Virus record (IMG/VR): IMGVR_UViG_3300010283_000004
Location: 1-46,729 of that record
Strand: one strand, 5' to 3'
Length of the DNA: 46,729 bases
From: a virus
The notes under the pieces are model-generated. The model saw nothing but the letters and a program-made list of their open reading frames with translations. It ran no database searches and was not told the DNA's origin. Of the stretch, positions 298 to 46,729 are shown piece by piece; position 1 is the first letter of the stretch, and each line of letters begins with the position of its first letter. A program made the translations under genes and the position numbers.

Positions 298-1572
298 TTA
301 TTTTTGAACCGCCTTTTCAAAGATTTCTACTGATTGATTTCTCAGGTAGTCGGTATTGTGGGTATATGTATTAAGTGTTGTTTCTATGTTGCAGTGTCCT
401 AAACGCTCCTGCACGTCCTTTATATTGGCACCGTTCTCAATAAGCGTTGTAGCATGTGTGTGCCTCAGTGAATGGTAGTTGAAATTTATCTTCAGCTCAT
501 AGTGGATTGCACGGCTGCAGTACTTCATGCTGTCCATGCTCAGCATCTGGCCGTTCTCTCTTACGTTAATCATATCCACGGACTCAAGAGGGCAGGGAAC
601 TCCGGCTTCAATTTCTATGAGCCGGTAAATGGTATCGCCCTTCTCGTCCTGCTCCGGCTTTTTGTAGATTTTTGTGTAGTATTCGTCATAGAAGGCTTTG
701 TTGGCCATTTGCCGGTCGTAAGCTTTTTTCAATGCAGCACAGAGGGTATCACCGATATTGATGATGCGGTTGGACTTGAAAGTTTTTGTGCTGTTGAAAT
801 ACCAGGCGCTTTTCTCTTCCTTCTTGCCCTTCTTCTTCAGAACTTCCCTTACATCTGCGCCACAGTTGCGCTTAAGCAAAGCCTTGCTGATATTTATGGT
901 CTGATTATCAAAATCGACATCATTCCAAGTAAGGCCAAAGCATTCGGAAATTCTTACGCCGGTATAGTAGCCGATCATAAGCGGAATATAAAAATTAGAG
1001 CCTTCCGGAAAGCGCTCTATAATCTGCTTAAACTGCTCCGGTGTAATGATGTACCGGGTTTCCTTCTTGGGTGCCGTATCCTTGGGGATTCTTACGTTAT
1101 TGCATGGATTATATTGGATGTACTTCAACGGCTCAACAGCATAATCCAGCGCTGCAGAGAGCGTGGAGAAGATACCGACGATGCTTGCCCTGCTGAGGCC
1201 GCGCAGCTTCAGAGAATTTACGAATTCCTGAACGGCGGAAGGGGTGAGGGCTTTTAACCGGTACATTCCTAGGCTGGGCTTCAGGTGATTTTCGATAGTA
1301 TAAAGATAGCCAAGCTGGGTATTATATTTGAGGTTCATTTTGCAGTAAGTATCAATCCAACTGTCCAGATAATCCGCAACGGAAATGCTGGAAAGATTGA
1401 AAGTCTGACCGCTTTCGTTGTATTCTGCCAGCGCCCTGGTTCCGACTTCCACGGCTTCCTTTTTCGTTTTAAAGCCGGATTTGGAAACACGCTTACGCTT
1501 GCCATCGACGGAAGCAGCTTCGAAACGGTACTGCCATTTATCGCCGCGTTTTGTTACGTTTAATGTTGACAT
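298..1572 (-). CDS. int: Tyrosine recombinase (phage integrase)
   Basis: 424 aa. The C-terminus HSLRHTHATTLIENGANIKDVQERLGHCNIETTLNTYTH carries the H-x-x-R ... H ... Y catalytic signature. The N-terminus KRGDKWQYRF...GFKTKKEA resembles an arm-type DNA-binding domain. An SD (aaggag) precedes the ATG. Confidence 0.95.
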   Translation of the reverse strand: MSTLNVTKRGDKWQYRFEAASVDGKRKRVSKSGFKTKKEAVEVGTRALAEYNESGQTFNLSSISVADYLDSWIDTYCKMNLKYNTQLGYLYTIENHLKPSLGMYRLKALTPSAVQEFVNSLKLRGLSRASIVGIFSTLSAALDYAVEPLKYIQYNPCNNVRIPKDTAPKKETRYIITPEQFKQIIERFPEGSNFYIPLMIGYYTGVRISECFGLTWNDVDFDNQTINISKALLKRNCGADVREVLKKKGKKEEKSAWYFNSTKTFKSNRIINIGDTLCAALKKAYDRQMANKAFYDEYYTKIYKKPEQDEKGDTIYRLIEIEAGVPCPLESVDMINVRENGQMLSMDSMKYCSRAIHYELKINFNYHSLRHTHATTLIENGANIKDVQERLGHCNIETTLNTYTHNTDYLRNQSVEIFEKAVQK

Positions 1573-3040: not shown

Positions 3041-3846
3041 GGTTTATCAAGCTGCTTGATACTTTCGCTTGGCGTAGGCAATTTCTCTGGCATTGTGCCG
3101 CCGAGTTCTTCAATAGTTTTGCGAACGGTACGACCGACTTCGTAATGCACTTTGTTGGCAGCTTCTTTGCTACTGATATTCTCACGGCGCAGTTTGTCTT
3201 CTGCCTGAGTGATGCGGAACAGGTTCGCACCGAGTTCCACACTGCCCATGTGGTCTAAAATCTCTTGATTAGGTTTAAGCTTCTTGCGACGTTTTATATC
3301 GCCAGCGGTTTCACCGCCATAAAGTCCCATGTAACCGCTATTTTGGAATTTGGCGAAGTCAAGGTTCGTTTTTACGCCTGCGGCAAAGGCTGCATCAGCG
3401 AGAGCAACGTTATGCTGTTTGATATTATTTCGTGCTTCAATGCGAGCGTCTATTTCCTTGTTGAAAGCCTCTGCTGCTTCAAGGTCATGGATATGGTCCG
3501 CACCGAGTTGCGCGAGCCACTGCTTGAATGGTTCGGCTTTAGGCGAGGGGATAGATTGGATAATACGCAGAATACCTTCTGTATTTGCGGTGTCAGTGAG
3601 ACGCATTTTCCCATCTTCTGCAAGCAATTTCAACCTGTGACAATTTGTCACGGTTTCATTACCTTCTGCCTTCAGTCTTTGCTTTAGCTTGCGCCAATAA
3701 GCTGATTTATCCGCGCTGTCGGTCAATGCACCGACAACATCGACAACAGAAAAGAACCATTCTCCGGCTTCATCGTTCCAAATGGAGCGAATTTGCGCAC
3801 TCTGAAACAATTTTACATCTTTCATGTCTTCATTCCTCGCTTTCAT
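3031..3846 (-). CDS. dinD: DNA-damage-inducible protein D homologue (BRO-N-like N-terminus plus DinD C-terminal domain)
   Basis: FAKFQNSGYMGLYGG...RKKLKPNQEILDHMGSVELGANLFRITQAEDKLRR...VGRTVRKTIEELGGTMPEKLPTPSESIKQL is nearly collinear with E. coli DinD as I recall it. A better SD (gagga) precedes the internal ATG at 3825, so the true start may be Met8. Confidence 0.85.
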   Translation of the reverse strand: MKARNEDMKDVKLFQSAQIRSIWNDEAGEWFFSVVDVVGALTDSADKSAYWRKLKQRLKAEGNETVTNCHRLKLLAEDGKMRLTDTANTEGILRIIQSIPSPKAEPFKQWLAQLGADHIHDLEAAEAFNKEIDARIEARNNIKQHNVALADAAFAAGVKTNLDFAKFQNSGYMGLYGGETAGDIKRRKKLKPNQEILDHMGSVELGANLFRITQAEDKLRRENISSKEAANKVHYEVGRTVRKTIEELGGTMPEKLPTPSESIKQLDKPKK

Positions 3847-3848
3847 AA

Positions 3849-3900
3849 ATTTATAACTAAAATGTCTCCACCGTCAGCCTTGCGCTGGCGGTATTTTTTA
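3849..3900. repeat. Cassette-boundary repeat copy 2
   Basis: Hairpin 3870..3892 (accgtcagc / gctggcggt; loop differs from copy 1) followed by a T-run at 3894..3899. It sits just upstream (minus sense) of dinD. Confidence 0.7.
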
Positions 3901-4317
3901 CTTCTTCAGCACTTCCAGCCCCATCGGCACGCCGACCATGTCAGCAAGGCGGTGGATGGAAGTTTCCGGATACTGCTGCAGCAGCTCATCCGGCAGGAGC
4001 AACTCCACGGCGAAGGTGTTGGCCTGCCGTTCTATTTTCTCTATGCTGAAAAGGGTGTGGGCTTTGAGGAATGGCGTCGATACGCCTTTATGTAAAACAC
4101 TGTGGCCAAGCTCATGGGCGCAGGTGTATGCTTGCAATTCTTCGGATATGTTCTGGTTAATGATGATAAACTTAGAACGCTTATAAGTAGTGAAGTAGCC
4201 CCATGTGCTGCCAAGCTCTGCGTACATGACGATGATGTTCAGCAGCTGTGCCAGCTCAAAGGGGTTATTTGTTTTGTATTTATGTGTAAGCTGCTTCACA
4301 GCAGCCTTGATATCCAT
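3898..4317 (-). CDS. immA: ImmA/IrrE-family zinc metallopeptidase (anti-repressor protease)
   Basis: 139 aa with the HELGH (HExxH) motif. It lies immediately downstream of the XRE repressor on the same strand, the classic immR-immA pair. Confidence 0.9.
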   Translation of the reverse strand: MDIKAAVKQLTHKYKTNNPFELAQLLNIIVMYAELGSTWGYFTTYKRSKFIIINQNISEELQAYTCAHELGHSVLHKGVSTPFLKAHTLFSIEKIERQANTFAVELLLPDELLQQYPETSIHRLADMVGVPMGLEVLKK

Positions 4318-19377: not shown

Positions 19378-19468
19378 GCTGTCGTACTCAAGTCTGGTTT
19401 AAGAGGCCGCTTTTCATAAGCGGTAGGCGGATAATCTCCGTGCGTGGGTTCGTATCCCACCGGCAGCA
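19378..19468 (+). tRNA. Class II (long variable arm, Ser/Leu-like) tRNA with anticodon UCA: putative opal (UGA) suppressor
   Basis: Hand fold. Acceptor gctgtcg/cggcagc (7 bp). D arm ctc-aagtctggtttaa-gag, very like Bacillus tRNA-Ser. Anticodon stem ccgct/agcgg with loop tt-TCA-ta (anticodon at 19414..19416). 5-bp variable stem. T arm gtggg-ttcgtat-cccac. Discriminator A, and CCA is not encoded. U37 and U58 are atypical. Confidence 0.6.
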
Positions 19469-19480
19469 CCTGTTTATGTA

Positions 19481-21385: not shown

Positions 21386-22707
21386 TAGGAAATCTCCGTT
21401 CTGTTATCAAGCCCGTAATACATTTTGAAAGTTTTAGTAAAAAACAAATGCAGCTTTTAACGTGGTGGTGTCCCGAATCACCATACCACGATTATGCTGG
21501 CATCATAGCTGACGGCTCCATTCGTGCTGGGAAGACAGTAGCGATGGCCGTCAGCTTTATTATTTGGGCTATGGATACCTACGATGGCCAGAACTTTGCT
21601 ATGTGCGGCAAGACTGTAGGCAGCTTCAGACGTAACGTCTGGAAATGGCTGAAACCGGTACTGTTGGTACGTGGTTATCAGCTCGAAGAATCACGCACTG
21701 AGAATCTTATTGTTATAGCTAAGGACGAACGCATTAACTATTTTTATGTGTTTGGCGGAAGGGACGAATCATCACAGGATCTTATCCAAGGTATAACATT
21801 GGCTGGCCTTTACTGTGATGAGGTCGCGCTGATGCCGGAGTCGTTTGTCAATCAGGCAACAGGTCGTTGTTCTGTAGAGGGCGCTAAAATGTGGTTCAAC
21901 TGTAACCCTGATTCACCTATGCATTGGTTCTTGCTCCGGTGGATTGAAAAGCGGGATGAGAAAAGGCTGCTGCATCTCCATTTTCTGATGGATGATAATC
22001 CTTCACTTAGTGAGGCAGTGCGGGAGCGTTACCGCACAACTTATTCCGGAGTATTCTACAGACGATTTATCCTAGGCGAATGGGTAATGGCTCAAGGTGC
22101 TATTTATCGTGATGCATGGGATGATGATGAGCTGCTCTTTGATGACGAGAAGCTGGAGTATCTGCTCCGTAATCTTCACATCATGAAGCGCTCTATAACG
22201 ATAGACTATGGTACAGTCAATCCTATGGTTTATCTTGACGTGCTCGATGATGGTACAGATTTGTGGTTTATACGTGAGTATTACTGGGATAGCAGAGCAG
22301 AACAACGCGAGAAGGACAACAGCCAGTACGCTGATGACCTGCTTGAGTTCGTGCGTGGAGTTGAGCTGTGGCCTTCAAACGTGGTTATTGACCCATCTGC
22401 AGCAAGCTTTAAGATTGAGCTGCGCAACCGAGGCTTGCATGCAAAAGAGACTGTGGAAACAATCAACGCCGACAATGATGTTATAGAGGGCATCCGCAAG
22501 GTGAATACACTGATGACTCGACGTAAGATACATTTTTATAAGGGCTTGACTCATACAATTAAGGAGTTAAAGGCTTATGTATGGGATGATAAAGCGCTGC
22601 AGAACAGCGGTAAGGAGAAGCCTATTAAGGTAGCAGACCACTGTCCGGATGCGGTCCGCTATTATGTCAGCACTATAATCAGGCCAAGGAGGATAGCAAA
22701 TGTCTAA
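21382..22707 (+). CDS. terL: Terminase large subunit (PBSX/Terminase_3-type)
   Basis: Walker A DGSIRAGKT and Walker B LYCDEV. A C-terminal nuclease region with DHCPDAVRY is present. ATG at 21382 with SD ggggagg. Confidence 0.9.
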   Translation: MIGNLRSVIKPVIHFESFSKKQMQLLTWWCPESPYHDYAGIIADGSIRAGKTVAMAVSFIIWAMDTYDGQNFAMCGKTVGSFRRNVWKWLKPVLLVRGYQLEESRTENLIVIAKDERINYFYVFGGRDESSQDLIQGITLAGLYCDEVALMPESFVNQATGRCSVEGAKMWFNCNPDSPMHWFLLRWIEKRDEKRLLHLHFLMDDNPSLSEAVRERYRTTYSGVFYRRFILGEWVMAQGAIYRDAWDDDELLFDDEKLEYLLRNLHIMKRSITIDYGTVNPMVYLDVLDDGTDLWFIREYYWDSRAEQREKDNSQYADDLLEFVRGVELWPSNVVIDPSAASFKIELRNRGLHAKETVETINADNDVIEGIRKVNTLMTRRKIHFYKGLTHTIKELKAYVWDDKALQNSGKEKPIKVADHCPDAVRYYVSTIIRPRRIANV

Positions 22708-24637
22708 AAGAAAACGTACGCTAAGTGCTCCGGCACCACAGCTTCGAAGAGCGAGGGCGCTTGATGCATTTACTAATGTGCTTGCCAGGCTGGGTGCGGG
22801 CACTCCGAACCTGCTGGAAGGCACGGAGTACAGTTTGCAGCGCCTTAGCCGTGATTTCAATCAGCTGAATGCGTTATACCGCGAGAGCTGGATAATACGT
22901 CGTATTATTGACGTTATTCCGGCCGATATGTTAAAGAACTGGATAACAATTACTAGCGGTATTGATCCGGATGTAGAGAAGAAACTCAGTATTTCTCTGA
23001 GACGTACGCAGCTCATCGACAAGCTTAAGCGTGGCATGCAGTGGGGCAGACTTTATGGAGGGGCGCTTGGCGTGATGTTGGTCAAGCATCAGGGCTATAA
23101 TCTCAGTCAGCCGCTTAGGCTTGATTGGATAATGCCTGGGGACTTCGCAGGGCTTCTCATTTTCGACCGGTGGAACGGAGTTAATCCATCCAACGAGCTT
23201 ATTGAAGATATTTCAGATCCTGATTATGGTTATCCGAAATATTACACTGTAACTGATCCTGCCGGTGGTGGTTCTGTAAAAATACACCATAGCAGAGTAA
23301 TCAGATTTACCGGCAACACATTACCTTTTTGGGAAGAAATTGCCGAGATGCAGTGGGGAGCTTCTGTGGTCGAGTCTGTTTTTGATGAGTTGAAGAAGCG
23401 CGATAACGTATCATGGAATATTGCACAGCTGACGTTCATGGCCAATATCCGTGTGCTTAAAATGCAGGACTTAGGCCAGCTGTTGGCTGCTACTGACAGT
23501 GAGTCGCAGGCTGAGCTGCTGCGCACGTTGGAGGCACAGAACATGCTGCTGAACAATATGGGTATGCAAGTAATGGATGCGGCAGATGGGCTGGAAACGC
23601 ATCAGTATACATTCGGCGGGCTGGCTGATTGTTATCAGCAGTTTATCATGGATATCTCCGGTGCCGCTGAGATACCGGTGACAAAGCTGTTCGGAAGGTC
23701 TCCGTCCGGGCTAAATGCTACTGGTGAAAGTGACTTGCAGAATTACTATGATATGATAGCAGAAAAGCAGGAAGCTGTGTTAAGACCTATCTTAAACAAG
23801 GTATTGCCGCCTTTTATCATTTCAACTATTGGCAGTTTGCCGGACGACTTTGATTTTGAATTCGACCCGGTTGCAGAGCCTACGGATAAAGAGCGCGCCG
23901 ACCTTGCCAAGTGTGGCACAGATAACGTTGTAGCTGCTTACAATGCTGGGCTTATCTCTCAGCGCACTGCCCTGAAGGAGCTGAAGCAGCAGAGCGAGCG
24001 CACCGGTGTCTGGACGAATATCACAGATGAGGACATCGAGCGTGCGTCCGACTCCGTGGAGCCGCCTGGTGAGATGGGAGGCATGTTTGGTGGCGAAGAA
24101 CCGATTGAACCACAGGCGTCTGCTTCTGTTAGGCAAGTGAAAAGTGCAGATGCTGCTTTCTGGAGTGAGGCTGATGATTTTAATTCACATCATAGTCCTG
24201 AGAATGGACGATTTTGTGAAGCCGATGGTGTTGGCGGTGGGGCTGGAAGAACAAATAACTTGCAAGAAAGCAAAAATAATGGTACAATCAGCACCAAAGA
24301 AACGATAGCTCCAGAATGGTTTATTAAACAGAACAGGCCATTATTGATGAATGCGGAAATTAAGCAGTTGGGACATGTGCGTTGGATAAGTAAACATGTT
24401 TTTGACCGTATGTGGGAGCGTGGAATAAATGCGGAAGAAATAAAGGATACCATCAAAAATGGAGAGAGAGCTGTTGATAATCAATACGGAGGTTATATTT
24501 ACTCTTCAAACGGGATAAAAGTTTGTGTTACTAAGAGTGGAGGCTTAAAAACGGTTATCAATAAGTCTACACAAAATTTTAAAACTTCTCTCGGAGCAAT
24601 ATTTTTGGAGGCTAAAAATGCTAAAAAAACTAATTGA
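22700..24637 (+). CDS. Portal protein (DUF1073/HI1409-type) fused to a C-terminal DUF4258/RelE-fold-like toxin domain
   Basis: The portal core runs to about residue 475. It is followed by the linker SHHSPENGRFCEADGVGGGAG and then ISKHVFDRMWERGINAEEIKDTIKNGERAVDNQYGGYIYSSNGIKVCVTKSGGLKTVI (about 24386..24560), which matches the DUF4258 pattern S-x-H-A-x-x-R-M-x-E-R-G-I. Confidence 0.85.
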   Translation: MSKRKRTLSAPAPQLRRARALDAFTNVLARLGAGTPNLLEGTEYSLQRLSRDFNQLNALYRESWIIRRIIDVIPADMLKNWITITSGIDPDVEKKLSISLRRTQLIDKLKRGMQWGRLYGGALGVMLVKHQGYNLSQPLRLDWIMPGDFAGLLIFDRWNGVNPSNELIEDISDPDYGYPKYYTVTDPAGGGSVKIHHSRVIRFTGNTLPFWEEIAEMQWGASVVESVFDELKKRDNVSWNIAQLTFMANIRVLKMQDLGQLLAATDSESQAELLRTLEAQNMLLNNMGMQVMDAADGLETHQYTFGGLADCYQQFIMDISGAAEIPVTKLFGRSPSGLNATGESDLQNYYDMIAEKQEAVLRPILNKVLPPFIISTIGSLPDDFDFEFDPVAEPTDKERADLAKCGTDNVVAAYNAGLISQRTALKELKQQSERTGVWTNITDEDIERASDSVEPPGEMGGMFGGEEPIEPQASASVRQVKSADAAFWSEADDFNSHHSPENGRFCEADGVGGGAGRTNNLQESKNNGTISTKETIAPEWFIKQNRPLLMNAEIKQLGHVRWISKHVFDRMWERGINAEEIKDTIKNGERAVDNQYGGYIYSSNGIKVCVTKSGGLKTVINKSTQNFKTSLGAIFLEAKNAKKTN

Positions 24638-24836
24638 ATTCTTTGAGCGAGAAACAGGCGTGACTATTGAAGAAGCGTATAATTTATCGCCAGAAGAACA
24701 AGAAGCAATTTTTGACAAAATGGTAGAAATTGAACTTGAAGAACTCAGGGATGTAAATGATGAGAACGCTCCAATAAGTGAGCGTTGTGCTTTAGCTTGT
24801 AAATGGCAAGATATCATGAATGGTTCGAAAATTTAA
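24618..24836 (+). CDS. Small acidic protein, candidate immunity/antitoxin for the portal C-terminal domain
   Basis: 72 aa with SD ggagg. It overlaps the portal 3' end by 20 nt and is followed by a terminator. Confidence 0.55.
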   Translation: MLKKLIEFFERETGVTIEEAYNLSPEEQEAIFDKMVEIELEELRDVNDENAPISERCALACKWQDIMNGSKI

Positions 24837-24842
24837 ATCCTT

Positions 24843-24877
24843 AAGCGTAGTTAGAATTTTTCTAGCTGCGCTTTTTT
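24843..24877 (+). terminator. Rho-independent terminator inside the head module
   Basis: 11-bp stem agcgtagttag / ctagctgcgct (two G-U pairs) followed by a T7 run. Confidence 0.7.
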
Positions 24878-24892
24878 TGTTGGAGTAATAAC

Positions 24893-25732
24893 ATGAAAAA
24901 ATTTAAAATGCCGCGAGTCATTGAACGCTCTTATGCCAGCGCCATTGACCGCCTAATGCAAGGACTGAAGCGTGAGTTATCTCACGTTGCCAGTCCTTTT
25001 TTTATTGCTGACATAATGCGTCGGCTGGCACGTTCTCCGACTTTTATTCGTGCCTGCGACCAAATCGCACGCTCGATGGCCACGCATCTGTTCCGCGACG
25101 GGCATAAGACGTGGCGTGCCGCAGCAGCTGAGGGCAGCAAGGGGCGAATCATCCGCACCGCTCTACAGCGCGAGCTTGCCTCACCACGCGTCGCAAATGT
25201 GTACGAGGGTATAATCAGTCGTAATGCTGAATTAATCCGCTCTATGCCGCTCACGCTGGCTGACAGGGTGGCTCACAAGGTTGCTAAAGGTTATGAGCAA
25301 GGCTTGCGACCGGAGGCGATGATAGACGATATCCTCAAAGAGTACCCGCACATGACCGAAGCTCATGCAAGGCTCATTGCCCGCACGGAAACGTCTAAAG
25401 CCAGCACGGCTCTGACGCAGGTACGTGCTGCTGAGGCAGGGCTTGAATGGTACGTCTGGCGGACGAGTGAGGACTCTCGTGTGCGTTCTGCTCACGCTCA
25501 TATGGATGGCGTGATTATTCCTTGGAGCGAAGCTCCGGCGCCGGAACTGCTCAACCATGAGAAGTCGCAAGGGTACTACCATGCGGGGAACATTTACAAT
25601 TGCCGCTGCTATCCTGAGCCGCTTATCAGGTTTGACCAGGTGGCGTGGCCAGCTAAGGTGTACCGAAACGGCAAAATCGAGCGCATGGGCATAAAACAAT
25701 TCAAACGATTACTACCTGGAGGTGAGCTATGA
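24893..25732 (+). CDS. Head morphogenesis protein (SPP1 gp7 / Mu F family)
   Basis: WRTSEDSRVRSAHAHMDGVIIPW ... NCRCYPEP is the MuF signature. Confidence 0.9.
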   Translation: MKKFKMPRVIERSYASAIDRLMQGLKRELSHVASPFFIADIMRRLARSPTFIRACDQIARSMATHLFRDGHKTWRAAAAEGSKGRIIRTALQRELASPRVANVYEGIISRNAELIRSMPLTLADRVAHKVAKGYEQGLRPEAMIDDILKEYPHMTEAHARLIARTETSKASTALTQVRAAEAGLEWYVWRTSEDSRVRSAHAHMDGVIIPWSEAPAPELLNHEKSQGYYHAGNIYNCRCYPEPLIRFDQVAWPAKVYRNGKIERMGIKQFKRLLPGGEL

Positions 25733-27009
25733 GCAAGGCATATTTTGGCTCACGAATCTCCGACCACATCCTTAAAACGCCAGAAGGCTTTTTGATTTGC
25801 AAAGATGTACCGATTGCACGCACAGGCACGCAGCAGTATCGAGGCTGCGAATTCGGCGGTCCGGTCGCTGATGGCATTTATAATGTTCAGCGTCCTGAAG
25901 CTGAAGTCTTTGACCGTGCTGCCGTGGCAAGCTTTGAAGGCAAGCCTGTATGCGATGAGCATCCGGAAGAAGATGTAACCCCTGATAACTATGGGCGGTA
26001 CATGAAAGGCGTGTGTCGTGATGTGCGTCGAGGCGATGGCGACTTGAGTAATTGCTTGGTCGCTGATTTAGTTATTTACGATGCTGACCTTATCAATAAG
26101 ATTGAGGCCGGCAAACGCGAGATATCTTGCGGCTATGACTGCTTGTGGAACCCGACGAGTGACTCCAGCTATGACCAGCTGGAAATCCGCGGTAACCATG
26201 TAGCGGTTGTTGATAGAGGCAGAGCGGGGCACAAGGTGGCCATCCGTGATACTGCCGACGATAAAAAAGGAGGTACAAAAATGTCTAAATCTTTGATTGG
26301 ACGTATTCTGCGAGCGCTGGCTCGCGACGAATCTACTACACCGGAGGACATGGAGGCTGCCGCTAAATTGGCAGGTAGCTCTGATGCTGAGCCACGTCCT
26401 CAGCCTGCACCAGCTCCTGCTCCCGCAGCTCCCGCAGCTCCTGCAACACCTGCACCTGCTGCTGTGCCGCAGCCTGACAATAAACCTGCTGCAATGGATG
26501 AGGCTACCGAGGCACGTTTTAAGAAAATTGAGGACGCACTGGAAGCTATCAGCTCTAAGCTGAATCCTGCGCCGCCTGCTGTTGAACCTAAAAAGGACGC
26601 TCTTGATGCTCTGGAGGAAGAGCTCCAAAACAAAGCACCCGCTGCTGCTCCTGCCGGTGACGAGGACGATGTAATCGAGCCGCCTGAAGATATCAATGCT
26701 CAGGATGCAGCGCCGGAAGAAGATGTTGAGGGTGAATGTGCTCCCAACGCCAAGGAAGCACGTGACGCAGCTATGGCTTTAATTAAAAACTTGAAGCCTG
26801 TTGTTGCAGCTATCCCCAATGAGGTTCAGCGCAAACGTGCGGCTGACTCTCTGGCTATCCTCATCAAAGGCTCTATGCAGCAGGATGCTCAATATGGCGA
26901 GCTGATGCAGATGCGTCGCCGTTCCGCTGCGCAAGACAGCAAGCCTGATGATTATGCTCTGGGGCGTGAGATTGCTAAAAAATATAATCCCCATTATAAA
27001 AATCGCTAA
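25729..27009 (+). CDS. Scaffolding protein (DUF2213-type) with a Pro/Ala-rich linker
   Basis: FEGKPVCDEHPE ... ISCGY ... IRGNHVAVVDRGRAG, then the low-complexity stretch PRPQPAPAPAPAAPAAPATPAPAAVPQP. Confidence 0.75.
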   Translation: MSKAYFGSRISDHILKTPEGFLICKDVPIARTGTQQYRGCEFGGPVADGIYNVQRPEAEVFDRAAVASFEGKPVCDEHPEEDVTPDNYGRYMKGVCRDVRRGDGDLSNCLVADLVIYDADLINKIEAGKREISCGYDCLWNPTSDSSYDQLEIRGNHVAVVDRGRAGHKVAIRDTADDKKGGTKMSKSLIGRILRALARDESTTPEDMEAAAKLAGSSDAEPRPQPAPAPAPAAPAAPATPAPAAVPQPDNKPAAMDEATEARFKKIEDALEAISSKLNPAPPAVEPKKDALDALEEELQNKAPAAAPAGDEDDVIEPPEDINAQDAAPEEDVEGECAPNAKEARDAAMALIKNLKPVVAAIPNEVQRKRAADSLAILIKGSMQQDAQYGELMQMRRRSAAQDSKPDDYALGREIAKKYNPHYKNR

Positions 27010-41021: not shown

Positions 41022-41876
41022 ATGAGTAATGCAAGAATACAGTTTAGCACAGCGTCCGAGGAAAAATGGCTGCAGGTGAATCCTGTGTTGCGTGAGGGCG
41101 AGCTGGTCATCGCGCGCAAGGCGAACGGCAAGCGTAAGCTCGTGGTCGGCAAAACTGGCGGCTCCTCATACGCAAACTCCGAGGTGGTGTGGGATGCCGA
41201 GCAGGCTGAAACATATATGACTACCACCAAGGATTTAAGCGAGAATGTCAACGTTTTTGTGCCGCACATCGATTCCGCCGGCATTTTGACATGGACGAAC
41301 AAAGCGGGATTAGCTAATCCCACCGCAGTAAATATCAAGGGGGCAAAAGGTGACAAGGGCGATCCCGGACTGCAAGGTCCGAAAGGCGATGAAGTTACTA
41401 TTGATGAGGAACTATCTTCAACTTCTATTAATCCCGTTCAGAATAAAGTAGTAACGACAGCGATTGATACTCTTGCTGCTAGTATTCCTAAAACGTCTAT
41501 GGCTAATACATGGACGGCGCAGCAAAATTTTTATGACCTTATACTCAACAGAGAGAAATACACTACCTATGTTGTCGCTAGCACTTCTGACACGCCTATA
41601 ACCTCTACAATGGTTTATGCTGTAACAGGTGCATTTACACTTAACCTTGCTACTTTGGCTAAGGCATTAAGTGCTAGTCAATCATCCGTATTTACTGCGT
41701 ATTTTGCTGCAAATGCAGATTACAGTTTGACTATAAGCAATGCTGGTACATTAAAATACACCGGTAGTGCATCTGATGTTGCTATCACGAGTGCAGGATT
41801 GCTTCTTAACATATGGATGAGCAAAGATGGCGGTGGTACTTTGACTAGCATCGTACAGGCTAGTAAGTTATCGTGA
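41022..41876 (+). CDS. Tail fibre A: Mtd_N/hyaluronidase-type N-domain, short collagen-like stretch, receptor-binding C-domain paralogous to 43490..44194
   Basis: The N-terminus is IQFSTASEEKWLQVNPVLREGELVIARK. G-x-y repeats GAKGDKGDPGLQGPKGD lie at 41340..41390. The C-terminus ...NAGTLKYTGSASDVAITSAGLLLN...IVQASKLS parallels the second fibre. Confidence 0.8.
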   Translation: MSNARIQFSTASEEKWLQVNPVLREGELVIARKANGKRKLVVGKTGGSSYANSEVVWDAEQAETYMTTTKDLSENVNVFVPHIDSAGILTWTNKAGLANPTAVNIKGAKGDKGDPGLQGPKGDEVTIDEELSSTSINPVQNKVVTTAIDTLAASIPKTSMANTWTAQQNFYDLILNREKYTTYVVASTSDTPITSTMVYAVTGAFTLNLATLAKALSASQSSVFTAYFAANADYSLTISNAGTLKYTGSASDVAITSAGLLLNIWMSKDGGGTLTSIVQASKLS

Positions 41877-43489: not shown

Positions 43490-44194
43490 ATGGCAGTAAA
43501 TAAAGTTATTTATGACGGCAACACCTTGGTAGACCTTACCGGTGATACCGTCACCGCTACCGATTTAGCAGACGGAGTAAAAGCAACCGGTGCAGACGGT
43601 AACCCTATTATAGGGTTGATGCAAAAGGTCACCATTGATACTGAGCTGTCAGCCACCAGCACAAATCCTGTTGCTAATAAAGTTGTTTACAATGCCCTAA
43701 ATAATAAACTAGATAAGACAGGTATAGCTGCCTATGCGACAAGAGACGGCTCCGGCAATATAATCACAGATACCTATGTGAAAAAATCCGAAGTTAGCGG
43801 TGGCGTTAGCACATCGGAATCTAATACATGGACGGGCAAACAGACTTTTCAAAAAATGAAATATAACTTTGAAAGTTATAATGCCCCTCGTGTTAGCGGT
43901 GCTACTGATAACCCTTCTTCGTCGGTGGTAGTATATAATGTGCAAGGTAATTTTACGCTAGATATGTCAGTATTAGCAGGTCTGCTAAGCAATGGTGACG
44001 CTACATTATTTACTGCCTATATTACTTCAAATGGAGCATACACGCTAAGCATTAATAATGCAGGTACTCTTAAATATGTAGGCACTGCTGCTGATTTGGC
44101 GATAACCAGCAGTGGCCTGCTGCTAAACGTACTGCTGACTAAAAATACCAGCGGTGACGTGACAAGTATCGCACAGGCATCTAAACTTTCGTGA
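43490..44194 (+). CDS. Tail fibre B (receptor-binding C-domain paralogous to fibre A)
   Basis: VTIDTELSATSTNPVANKVV aligns with VTIDEELSSTSINPVQNKVV. LFTAYITSNGAYTLSINNAGTLKYVGTAADLAITSSGLLLN...IAQASKLS aligns with the C-terminus of fibre A. Confidence 0.8.
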   Translation: MAVNKVIYDGNTLVDLTGDTVTATDLADGVKATGADGNPIIGLMQKVTIDTELSATSTNPVANKVVYNALNNKLDKTGIAAYATRDGSGNIITDTYVKKSEVSGGVSTSESNTWTGKQTFQKMKYNFESYNAPRVSGATDNPSSSVVVYNVQGNFTLDMSVLAGLLSNGDATLFTAYITSNGAYTLSINNAGTLKYVGTAADLAITSSGLLLNVLLTKNTSGDVTSIAQASKLS

Positions 44195-46606: not shown

Positions 46607-46729
46607 AATTACAATAGATGTAGCTTAGTTGCTTCAATCCCTTATTTAAGGCAGTTTTCAACTAATATAAATGAAATCTTATGGCTGTAAAATACCTATG
46701 ATGAAGCCAATTCTATTGACGAGCCATGT
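46607..46729. repeat. Direct terminal repeat, right copy (identical to 1..123)
   Basis: Exact 123-bp match to the window start. Confidence 0.95.

Follow-up and report, generated by a model that had tools for sequence, protein, structure and literature searches.

A phage portal protein as the probable carrier of a polymorphic toxin/immunity cassette

Background

Why does the portal gene of a temperate phage run on in frame past the point at which the portal is complete, and what is the small acidic open reading frame (ORF) that overlaps its stop codon? The question is raised by the IMG/VR virus record IMGVR_UViG_3300010283_000004, analysed here over its whole stretch of 46,729 nucleotides (hereafter the window), in which the gene concerned encodes a DUF1073-type portal. 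Our results suggest that this region is probably a polymorphic toxin/immunity cassette with the phage portal as its carrier. Indeed, three features of polymorphic toxins in the sense of Zhang et al. 2012, i.e., a conserved carrier with variable tips, a co-varying downstream gene and orphan cassettes in relatives, were found for this gene.

Results

The portal and its extension

The argument relies on the following features.

22700..24637, forward strand: portal gene with a C-terminal extension, 645 amino acids in a single open frame, with a DUF1073/Phage_portal_3 core over approximately residues 1-477
24050..24172, forward strand: acidic Gly/Pro-rich spacer, residues 451-491, isoelectric point (pI) 4.05, between the portal crown and the junction motif
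24173..24247, forward strand: junction motif DDFNSHHSPENGRFCEADGVGGGAG, residues 492-516, a diverged form of the motif found ahead of each variable C-terminal domain
24241..24836, forward strand: variable AT-rich cassette (toxin domain and partner ORF), replaced in close relatives and delimited by blastn breakpoints against L007, L008, L009, L020 and L001
24293..24634, forward strand: C-terminal domain, residues 532-645, predicted DUF4258/Ntox49-type BECR-fold ribonuclease (RNase) toxin
24618..24836, forward strand: acidic ORF of 72 amino acids, pI 4.3, predicted cognate immunity protein, overlapping the portal stop by 20 nt
24843..24880, forward strand: intrinsic-terminator-like hairpin (14 bp, 3-nt loop, then a T-run) in the conserved right flank, directly upstream of MuF
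24893..25732, forward strand: MuF-family head morphogenesis gene, 279 amino acids, with Phage_Mu_F as its sole domain and without a toxin extension

Phage_portal_3 (Pfam) matched residues 55-410 of the portal with an E-value of 1e-119, and TIGR01555 matched residues 42-431. Portals without an extension terminate 37-41 residues past the conserved WTNITDEDI (W438 in the window), which corresponds to residues 475-479, and because these homologues end there, the core must be complete at about residue 475, as the first-pass annotation of this DNA had claimed. The same holds for its view that the ORF continues past a finished portal and that the tail is an add-on, since the frame is open throughout and relatives without the extension exist. 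Comparison with such portals places the boundary at about residue 475: those of L013-L017 and L028 stop at the equivalent position, with a stop codon that overlaps the start of MuF in all of L014-L017 and in L028. The adjacent MuF gene of the window is free of toxin, also as previously proposed, with no other domain than Phage_Mu_F.

The fusion is conserved among close homologues, more than 120 distinct proteins of 645-648 amino acids and 94-100% identity to the window portal, all with the same extension. Many of these near-identical fusion portals come, by name, from Phascolarctobacterium succinatutens, a human-gut Negativicute. An artefact or read-through was also considered as the source of the fusion and ruled out by these more than 120 full-length homologues.

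Between the portal crown and the variable domain, the spacer DNA remains homologous to that of relatives as far as 24080-24179, and the junction motif follows. Its general form is [DE]-[WF]-x-E/N-x-x-H-P-R-x(2-6)-G-x-F followed by a Gly/Ser run (...GGG), from which the window version (DFNSHHSPENGRF) diverges; the core of the latter (DDFNSHHSPENGRFCEADGVGGG) lies between the acidic spacer and the basic domain of 114 residues, and residues 496-516 read SHHSPENGRFCEADGVGGGAG. The motif is present in L007-L009, L011, L012, L021, L023-L025, L027, L029-L032 and in MT837250.1, and judging from these alignments it marks the left recombination boundary. In the structure model of the orphan protein P0003, the junction-equivalent region is disordered.

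The junction motif also opens stand-alone proteins of the head module in relatives L036, L032 and L025. As an example, L036, an IMG/VR relative with the same portal-toxin-partner layout, has at 3304-4137 an additional gene of 277 amino acids before MuF, with an N-terminal junction-type motif (AEWEEDKHPRAENGQFTSGSG) and no Pfam match; motif-first genes resembling it come after MuF in L032, L025, L024 and L011. Such proteins hint at a targeting or processing role of the junction motif beyond recombination.

The C-terminal domain

The domain (~114 residues, basic, pI 9.7) contains ISKHVFDRMWERGI...LKTVI, with ISKHVFDRMWERGI starting at residue 563. The Pfam family DUF4258 (PF14076) scored 25.5-26.5 bits against the tail alone and 23.5 bits against the full protein, for a cutoff of 25, and it was matched by 7 of the 11 members of the domain family (E <= 0.1). 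This family is rare, with 13 matches in a full HMMER scan of 1.84 billion representative proteins; a further protein search with the domain profile yielded merely short fragments. One member, P0137 (in L034), is the C-terminal tip of an RHS/YD-shell protein and a distant relative (E 9e-4). No family for the domain was found in PHROGs, NCBIfam or PADLOC, the Pfam PBECR models did not match the window domain at E <= 1, and the tail gave no tblastn match in 50,697 GenBank phage records.

In the 11-sequence alignment (26-50% identity), H566, R574 and T618 are invariant and D593 is nearly so, and K565-H566-x-x-D569 is similar to the 'K, Hxx[ED]' pattern given for colicin D in PMC3482391. Active BECR RNases combine a histidine in a helix with a Ser/Thr in the last strand (strand 4), according to section 19 of PMC5512222, and the conservation of H566, R574 and T618 would match this arrangement.

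The AlphaFold2 model of the domain, built on a shallow alignment of 11 sequences, reached a predicted local distance difference test (pLDDT) score of 85 and a predicted template-modelling (pTM) score of 0.71, and comprises helices at 8-19, 34-43 and 47-56 followed by a four-stranded antiparallel sheet. When this model was compared with the PDB by Foldseek, 8 of the 10 top matches were BECR toxins (the CdiA-CT of Escherichia coli NC101, colicin D and RelE), the NC101 match having an E-value of 0.03 and a probability of 0.93-0.98, and entries 5i4r/5i4q, 1v74 and 5znm were among the best fold matches. Among predicted viral structures (BFVD), there were six matches with E <= 0.001, including a 'DUF4258 domain-containing protein' of a Microbacterium phage (E 8e-4), and a 'Colicin D' entry matched at E 0.027.

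A 2026 preprint (10.64898/2026.08.28.747851) places DUF4258, which overlaps Ntox49, in a colicin-like BECR branch and not in RelE/ParE proper, and the modelled fold matches agree with this placement. The earlier proposal that the tail fits DUF4258 as a RelE/ParE-superfamily module can therefore be retained for the DUF4258/BECR type, with a borderline score, and not for RelE/ParE proper. Overall, the tail is a predicted RNase toxin domain of BECR fold and DUF4258 type, for which the sequence support is borderline while the modelled structure and the genomic context are consistent.

The partner ORF

The coordinates confirm that the acidic ORF of 72 amino acids overlaps the portal stop by 20 nt, and a GGAGG lies at 24607-24611, 6 nt before its ATG, so that the partner appears to be translationally coupled to the portal gene. 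Partner homologues lie behind type A domains (defined below) in six further contexts, and all seven type A contexts have an A-type partner; the partner is also found without a toxin in the islands L045-L047. It has no relative in Pfam, PHROGs, NCBIfam, PADLOC or the PDB and no DNA-binding or known antitoxin domain, and Imm22, the immunity family listed with Ntox49, did not match it in Pfam. The ORF likewise had no tblastn match in the 50,697 GenBank phage records, among which the toxin/partner cassette is absent. Its interpretation as a specific partner of the domain, first made from its position, is strengthened by the co-variation of domain type and downstream ORF, the orphan cassettes and the immunity island described below.

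Cassette replacement among relatives

A scan of one genome per species gave 27 loci with DUF1073 portals of 38-89% identity. The sampling of loci was driven by peptide patterns of this portal, so that the approximately 14 of 25 portals with tails are no population estimate; note that several bin labels among the relatives (e.g., 'Escherichia coli' and 'Bacteroidaceae') probably reflect mis-binned phage contigs. L007, L008, L009 and L020 align to the window until 24080-24240 and again from 24831-24842, with no alignment between, and portals that are 76-89% identical bear types A, B and C behind the same junction. At least four other domain types are fused in frame at the same junction motif, across contigs of Negativicutes, Clostridia and Bryobacterales. 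The tails found are as follows.

Type A, DUF4258-like: the window, L027/L049, L044, L048, L008 (divergent) and the orphans of L035 and L006; the partner is acidic, has 70-78 amino acids and is 26-49% identical to the window ORF
Type B, H..xH...T.F.P motif: L007, L011, L012 and the orphans P0003-P0005; the partner is a Cys_rich_CPCC protein of 67-68 amino acids (L007, L011 and these orphans)
Type C, without a family match: L009 and L020; the partner has 55 amino acids
Type D, without a family match: L024, L025, L031 and L030/L032; the partner has 76-81 amino acids (L024, L025, L031)
PBECR1 tail: L023 (Pfam PBECR1, E 1e-10); no small downstream ORF was identified
Long tail of 480 residues, without a family match: L021; an ORF of 80 amino acids lies downstream

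Pfam gave weak DUF4258 matches for the tails of L008 and L027 and no significant family for the tails of types B, C and D and of L021. The type B domain model (from P0003, on a shallow alignment of 4 sequences) matches the CdiA-CT of E. coli O32:H37 (8ey4_A) with an E-value of 2.7e-4 and a template-modelling score of 0.71 on the target. In almost all domain-partner pairs, the stop and start codons overlap or nearly abut. The same plan was seen in MT837250.1, a GC-rich faecal phage scaffold of GenBank, with a portal, DFNPYHDSFNGRF, a short domain, an acidic ORF of 79 amino acids and MuF. The proposal that the extension was inserted horizontally as a module thus finds support in the swap of cassettes between conserved flanks and in the orphan cassettes, and a single tail shared by all related portals as a structural element, the situation that would speak against it, is not the case, tails being replaced or missing in relatives.

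Two further observations concern these loci. The portal of L021 (3917-6718, a DUF1073 portal of 934 amino acids) has a tail made of a long charged region, the junction motif AEWNEGDHPRGQPGNAGQF and a C-terminal domain of ~200 amino acids. In many cassette-bearing relatives, a conserved gene of ~105 amino acids (MGDFNTIYKILA...; phrog_3675, function not assigned) is present between the partner ORF and MuF (L007 4422-4736, L009 6114-6443, L020 1417-1731 and L011 6149-6472, and also L024, L025 and L033), whereas neither the window nor L008 has it.

Orphan cassettes and immunity islands

The domains also occur away from the portal. Orphan cassettes (P0003-P0005 and P0127) are stand-alone genes of 167-199 amino acids in which the junction motif comes after a short leader and before a domain of type B or A, and each gene directly precedes the matching partner ORF. 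They sit between the tail-fibre genes and the holin in the related phages L002-L006 and L035, with one or two per phage, as in these examples.

L002 2048-4577: orphan cassette region
L006 485-3158: orphan cassette region
L035 1037-1799: orphan cassette region

What the window DNA has in common with the orphan cassettes of L002-L006 is only the 80-nt junction patch 24161-24240, with 81% identity. In addition, P0131 combines a type A domain with a junction of the L009 type, a chimera that would be expected from recombination at the junction. The N-terminal leaders of the orphans share 'LLLxAR...SPLRRA', which may be a real targeting peptide or mere conserved upstream DNA.

In L045-L047, which are genome-bin contigs (two labelled Phascolarctobacterium and one Eubacterium), a type A partner gene with 88-90% identity occurs free of toxin. 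These islands hold partner genes of types C, A and B side by side, together with 3' remnants of A and B toxins.

L045 2600-5500, beside trpE/trpG: a type C-like partner; a type A toxin 3' remnant (...LLSEAKNATKTN) with its partner; a type B toxin 3' remnant (...YYERCRKAEGNKK) with the CPCC partner; a fragment of MuF; and, accompanied by small ORFs, a TNT toxin domain (Pfam E 1e-22)
L047 2600-4100, beside tRNA-Arg/Gly/Pro: immunity island

Displaced toxin ends with retained immunity genes are the residue of tip replacement in contact-dependent inhibition (CDI) and Rhs loci, and polymorphic toxin systems are known to include poly-immunity loci. By its gene content, the L045-type island resembles either such a poly-immunity locus or a head module in decay. 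Because partner genes persist there without toxins, the partner family seems to be retained independently of the toxins, in keeping with an immunity function.

Composition, hairpin and a promoter-like site

The G+C content of 24241-24836 is 0.357 (0.25-0.31 at third codon positions) against 0.49-0.54 in the flanks, among the lowest 3.6% of same-size windows. The spacer and junction (24050-24240) have a G+C content of 0.51; the first-pass annotation, for which the whole extension is richer in AT than the portal core, was hence right from 24241 onward and not for the spacer and junction.

It was also right in placing a terminator-like hairpin after the ORF of 72 amino acids, in the middle of the head operon. 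The 14-bp hairpin (24843-24873; folding energy -19.3 kcal/mol, z-score -4.9) is followed by TTTTTTTGTT. However, this element is not the module's own terminator, as had been claimed. DNA homology to relatives with other cassettes restarts at 24831-24842, i.e., before the hairpin, which is retained upstream of MuF in L001, L007, L008, L009 and L020, all bearing different cassettes. In addition, 97.6% of the stem cells are paired across 6 loci and 3 pairs are altered on both sides (compensatory changes). Since it sits in a flank conserved among relatives with different cassettes, the hairpin is not part of the cassette. Extension-free portals have no intergenic space at this position. At the cassette start, a further element was recorded.

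24260..24288, forward strand: sigma-70-like promoter match, TTGCAA-17-TACAAT with TG

A promoter at this site could give lysogenic expression of the partner and make the cassette a moron-like unit, which we consider a lead rather than a finding.

The phage genome and its context

The window is a complete temperate phage genome. Its opening 123 nt (1-123) are 100% identical to its closing 123 nt (46607-46729), which points to a complete circular or terminally redundant genome of ~46.6 kb and not to an excised piece of chromosome. From the integrase at the start of the genome, the gene order continues with replication, terminase, portal, MuF, protease/scaffold, capsid, tail, tail fibres, holin and M15 endolysin, so that the cassette lies within the late structural operon.

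298..1572, reverse strand: tyrosine integrase
25729..27009, forward strand: DUF2213 protein (DUF2213, E 3e-51; phrog_530 'head maturation protease', E 2e-59)

At the DNA level, 22700-25732 had no megablast match among GenBank phages or in complete E. coli genomes, and none of the 1929 GenBank phage records with a homologous portal had one covering at least 80% of the query.

Several side observations were made on this genome. ARAGORN called a tRNA-SeC (anticodon TCA, 93 nt) at 19378-19470 on the forward strand, while an Rfam scan of the whole window at gathering thresholds gave zero RNA families, tRNA included; the call may be false, or it may represent a phage-borne tRNA of suppressor-like or selenocysteine type. 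The tail-fibre-like genes 41022-41876 and 43490-44194 have a near-identical C-terminal segment (...TGAFTL..LS..FTAY...SIxQASKLS), which also closes the fibre gene of L035 upstream of its orphan cassette. Finally, the 648-amino-acid portal homologues P0038, P0048, P0054 and P0067 are named 'anti-CBASS protein Acb1 family protein' by NCBI. The NCBIfam scan of the window portal gave TIGR01555 (HI1409 family) alone and Pfam gave the portal family, so that the Acb1 name looks like a propagated misnomer, perhaps derived from portal-2H fusions.

Discussion

Relation to known systems

The closest known system is the MuF polymorphic toxin family, which follows the same logic in the same gene neighbourhood with another carrier. 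As in the MuF toxins (PMC3482391, PMC5576092, and PMC11699363 for Apk2/Bxa), a head-module gene of temperate phages and prophages combines a conserved N-terminal virion domain with a variable C-terminal toxin, and one or more small immunity ORFs lie directly downstream. Ntox49, which overlaps DUF4258, is among the MuF-borne toxins (PMC3482391); MuF-fused toxins with adjacent immunity genes are documented, some of them experimentally toxic (PMC5576092, PMC11699363), and their biological role is stated as unknown (PMC11699363). However, MuF toxins are defined by an N-terminal MuF domain on the toxin protein, and here the carrier is Phage_portal_3. MuF is present in 1-2 copies per SPP1 capsid, in contrast to the dodecameric and essential portal ring (DUF1073) considered here; moreover, the present cassette is bracketed by a distinct junction motif and a conserved terminator-like hairpin, and the adjacent MuF is free of cargo.

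The statement of the first-pass annotation that published phage polymorphic toxins are fused to MuF was too strong, since PBECR, 2H and InPase domains occur fused to portal domains according to Iyer et al. 2017 (PMC5512222). The portal-PBECR fusions described there resemble ours in joining a BECR-fold predicted RNase and a portal in one polypeptide, predicted to be packaged and injected, and the related locus L023 has a genuine Pfam PBECR1 tail. They differ in that the window domain matches DUF4258 and no PBECR model, and in that they appear in the searched text of PMC5512222 as a one-line architecture, where no immunity genes, cassette exchange, junction motif or orphans were found. Literature searches likewise gave no account, for portals, of cognate immunity genes, replacement of cassettes, a junction motif, orphan cassettes or host immunity islands. 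The portal-BECR fusion is therefore already known, and what is added here is the cassette system on the portal.

Among bacterial toxins, the BECR tRNases of the CdiA-CT/CdiI and colicin D/ImmD pairs are the best structural matches, for the type B domain as well (8ey4), and they share with the present cassette a basic toxin with a small acidic immunity gene directly downstream, a short conserved motif bounding the toxin tips and the existence of orphan cassettes. However, they rely on a type V secretion filament or on colicin import and not on a virion, they have no detectable sequence similarity to the present domain, and the partner found here is unrelated to CdiI or ImmD. Rhs/YD-repeat toxins are similar in that a domain of the same family ends the RHS/YD-shell protein P0137, with a small ORF next to it, and in that displaced 3' toxin remnants occur with retained immunity genes, as in L045-L047; they differ in carrier and export route, and the RHS-borne relative is distant, with a different partner ORF. 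The type II toxin-antitoxin modules of DUF4258 type (Gerdes 2025, PMC11980606) share the Pfam family and a small adjacent partner gene; here, in contrast, the toxin is fused to a portal and precedes its partner, which has no recognisable antitoxin or DNA-binding domain.

A proposed mechanism

The C-termini of solved portals (the crown) face the capsid interior, so that the tails would lie in the head interior and as many as twelve copies of the domain would be tethered in each particle. In the producing cell, the protein of 72 amino acids would neutralise the RNase, and when made from a prophage or a host island it would protect the cells that receive the toxin. Because the portal remains in the capsid after ejection, delivery would require cleavage. 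The portal of phage Mu is C-terminally trimmed during maturation, and in the present phage the tail would probably be cut at the junction or close to it. The candidate enzyme is the head maturation protease homologue of DUF2213 type (25729..27009), two genes downstream, and the candidate site of release is the invariant junction motif. The freed domain would then leave with the DNA and cleave RNA, probably tRNA, in the infected cell. Release and injection of the domain are a tentative part of this scheme, to which we give somewhat less than even chances; the only pointers to delivery into another cell are the topology of the portal and the immunity islands on the host side. For exchange, the junction-coding patch (~80-110 nt) and the conserved right flank would serve as the sites of recombination, with stand-alone cassettes near the lysis genes as donors.

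A wider reading would be that phages of gut Negativicutes and Clostridia possess, in their DUF1073 portals, a complete and separate polymorphic toxin system, with about a dozen head-tethered tips behind a dual-role junction motif, refreshed from orphans and countered by immunity arrays of the host. The junction motif would serve there as both a recombination boundary and a release or targeting signal, and the orphan cassettes adjoin lysis genes. We regard this extended system as possible, though a little short of an even bet.

Several observations weigh against the cassette interpretation or against parts of it. Assignment of the tail by profile came out divided: the DUF4258 alignment is partial, covering positions 1-33 of the 71 in the profile with a score at threshold, while a profile search of the domain family against PDB sequences found nothing relevant, giving chance matches (e.g., designed helical barrels, and MerR, in the domain and partner searches). 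The Foldseek E-values of the top PDB matches are weak (0.03-0.35), and PMC11980606 lists no known biochemical activity for DUF4258. T4 portals accept a C-terminal green fluorescent protein at only up to about half of the twelve positions (PMC9958956), and by analogy twelve tails of 19 kDa may be a burden on the portal; the need for cleavage is a further charge on delivery. Neither a second junction motif nor an orphan cassette was found when the window itself was searched, and its promoter-like sites are no commoner than in shuffled sequences (2 against 2.0 expected). In L001, a relative with 94.6% identity, insertion sequence (IS)-like sequence lies against the cassette, no more than a few bases from the junction boundary, and separates the toxin domain, called as a gene of 96 amino acids, from the portal; therefore, either the fusion is not indispensable or the L001 copy is defective. 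Positions 1-136 of L001, left of the equivalent of window position 24247, are non-portal and, judged by eye, resemble the C-terminal end of an IS30-type transposase (..PRKILGYKTPDELF..*).

Alternative explanations

The anatomy described above could also serve an early effector, injected for take-over of the host or against its defences, that cuts host or defence RNAs at infection, the protein of 72 amino acids merely silencing the RNase in the producer. This role is the one proposed for portal- and MuF-fused BECR domains in section 19 of PMC5512222; the position of the cassette within the late structural operon suits it, and the collections of partner genes in hosts (L045-L047) would be equally sensible as a defence against a phage effector. 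However, rapid swaps of unrelated domains with private partners, orphans and an RHS-borne relative are the signature of polymorphic toxins, for which the specificity of immunity counts between cells, and interchangeable specificities are not obviously needed by a pure take-over factor. Take-over and inter-strain competition have the same anatomy with different biological roles and cannot be told apart from sequence alone; we nevertheless hold the take-over effector to be rather unlikely.

The same cassette might instead be an embedded type II toxin-antitoxin or addiction module, fused by accident to the portal and acting in prophage stabilisation or abortive infection, the fusion having no function in delivery. 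DUF4258 is catalogued with RelE/ParE-type toxin-antitoxin toxins (PMC11980606), the AT-rich cassette was apparently acquired horizontally, a promoter-like site and a terminator-like hairpin lie on either side of it, and the domain stands apart from the portal in L001. We consider such a module improbable, as the in-frame fusion persists across more than 120 variants of the sequence, the same junction motif leads in frame into at least four other domain types, the toxin comes before its partner whereas DUF4258 modules are antitoxin-first (PMC11980606), no DNA-binding domain was matched in the partner, and the hairpin belongs to the conserved flank. More improbable still is a structural or packaging accessory, i.e., a dead RNA/DNA-binding BECR domain that anchors the genome end at the portal, with the small ORF as an assembly chaperone. 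A basic domain (pI 9.7) at the site holding the DNA end would suit such a role, and an inactive PBECR domain with a presumed binding role is given for the MuF of phage Mu (gp30) in PMC5512222. However, the His, Arg and Thr residues characteristic of active BECR RNases do not vary, host islands retain partner genes by themselves, and since close relatives replace the domain by unrelated ones or lack it altogether, it cannot be a required structural element.

Conclusions

A toxin borne by the portal, which we take as the probable nature of this cassette, has a fixed stoichiometry (12-mer), a fixed site (the crown, which lies within the head where the DNA exits) and a junction motif that can be recognised, and these features make the questions raised by MuF toxins testable, i.e., whether the toxin is cleaved, whether it is injected and what the junction motif does. 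As for annotation, such portals are mislabelled in public records (e.g., as 'anti-CBASS protein Acb1 family protein'), and the toxin and immunity genes are unannotated. The cassette system together with the host immunity island suggests strain-level warfare or exclusion in a common human gut genus by means of virion-delivered RNases. If true, virions would deliver protein toxins with between-strain specificity, and bacteria would defend themselves against phage-borne proteins besides phage DNA.

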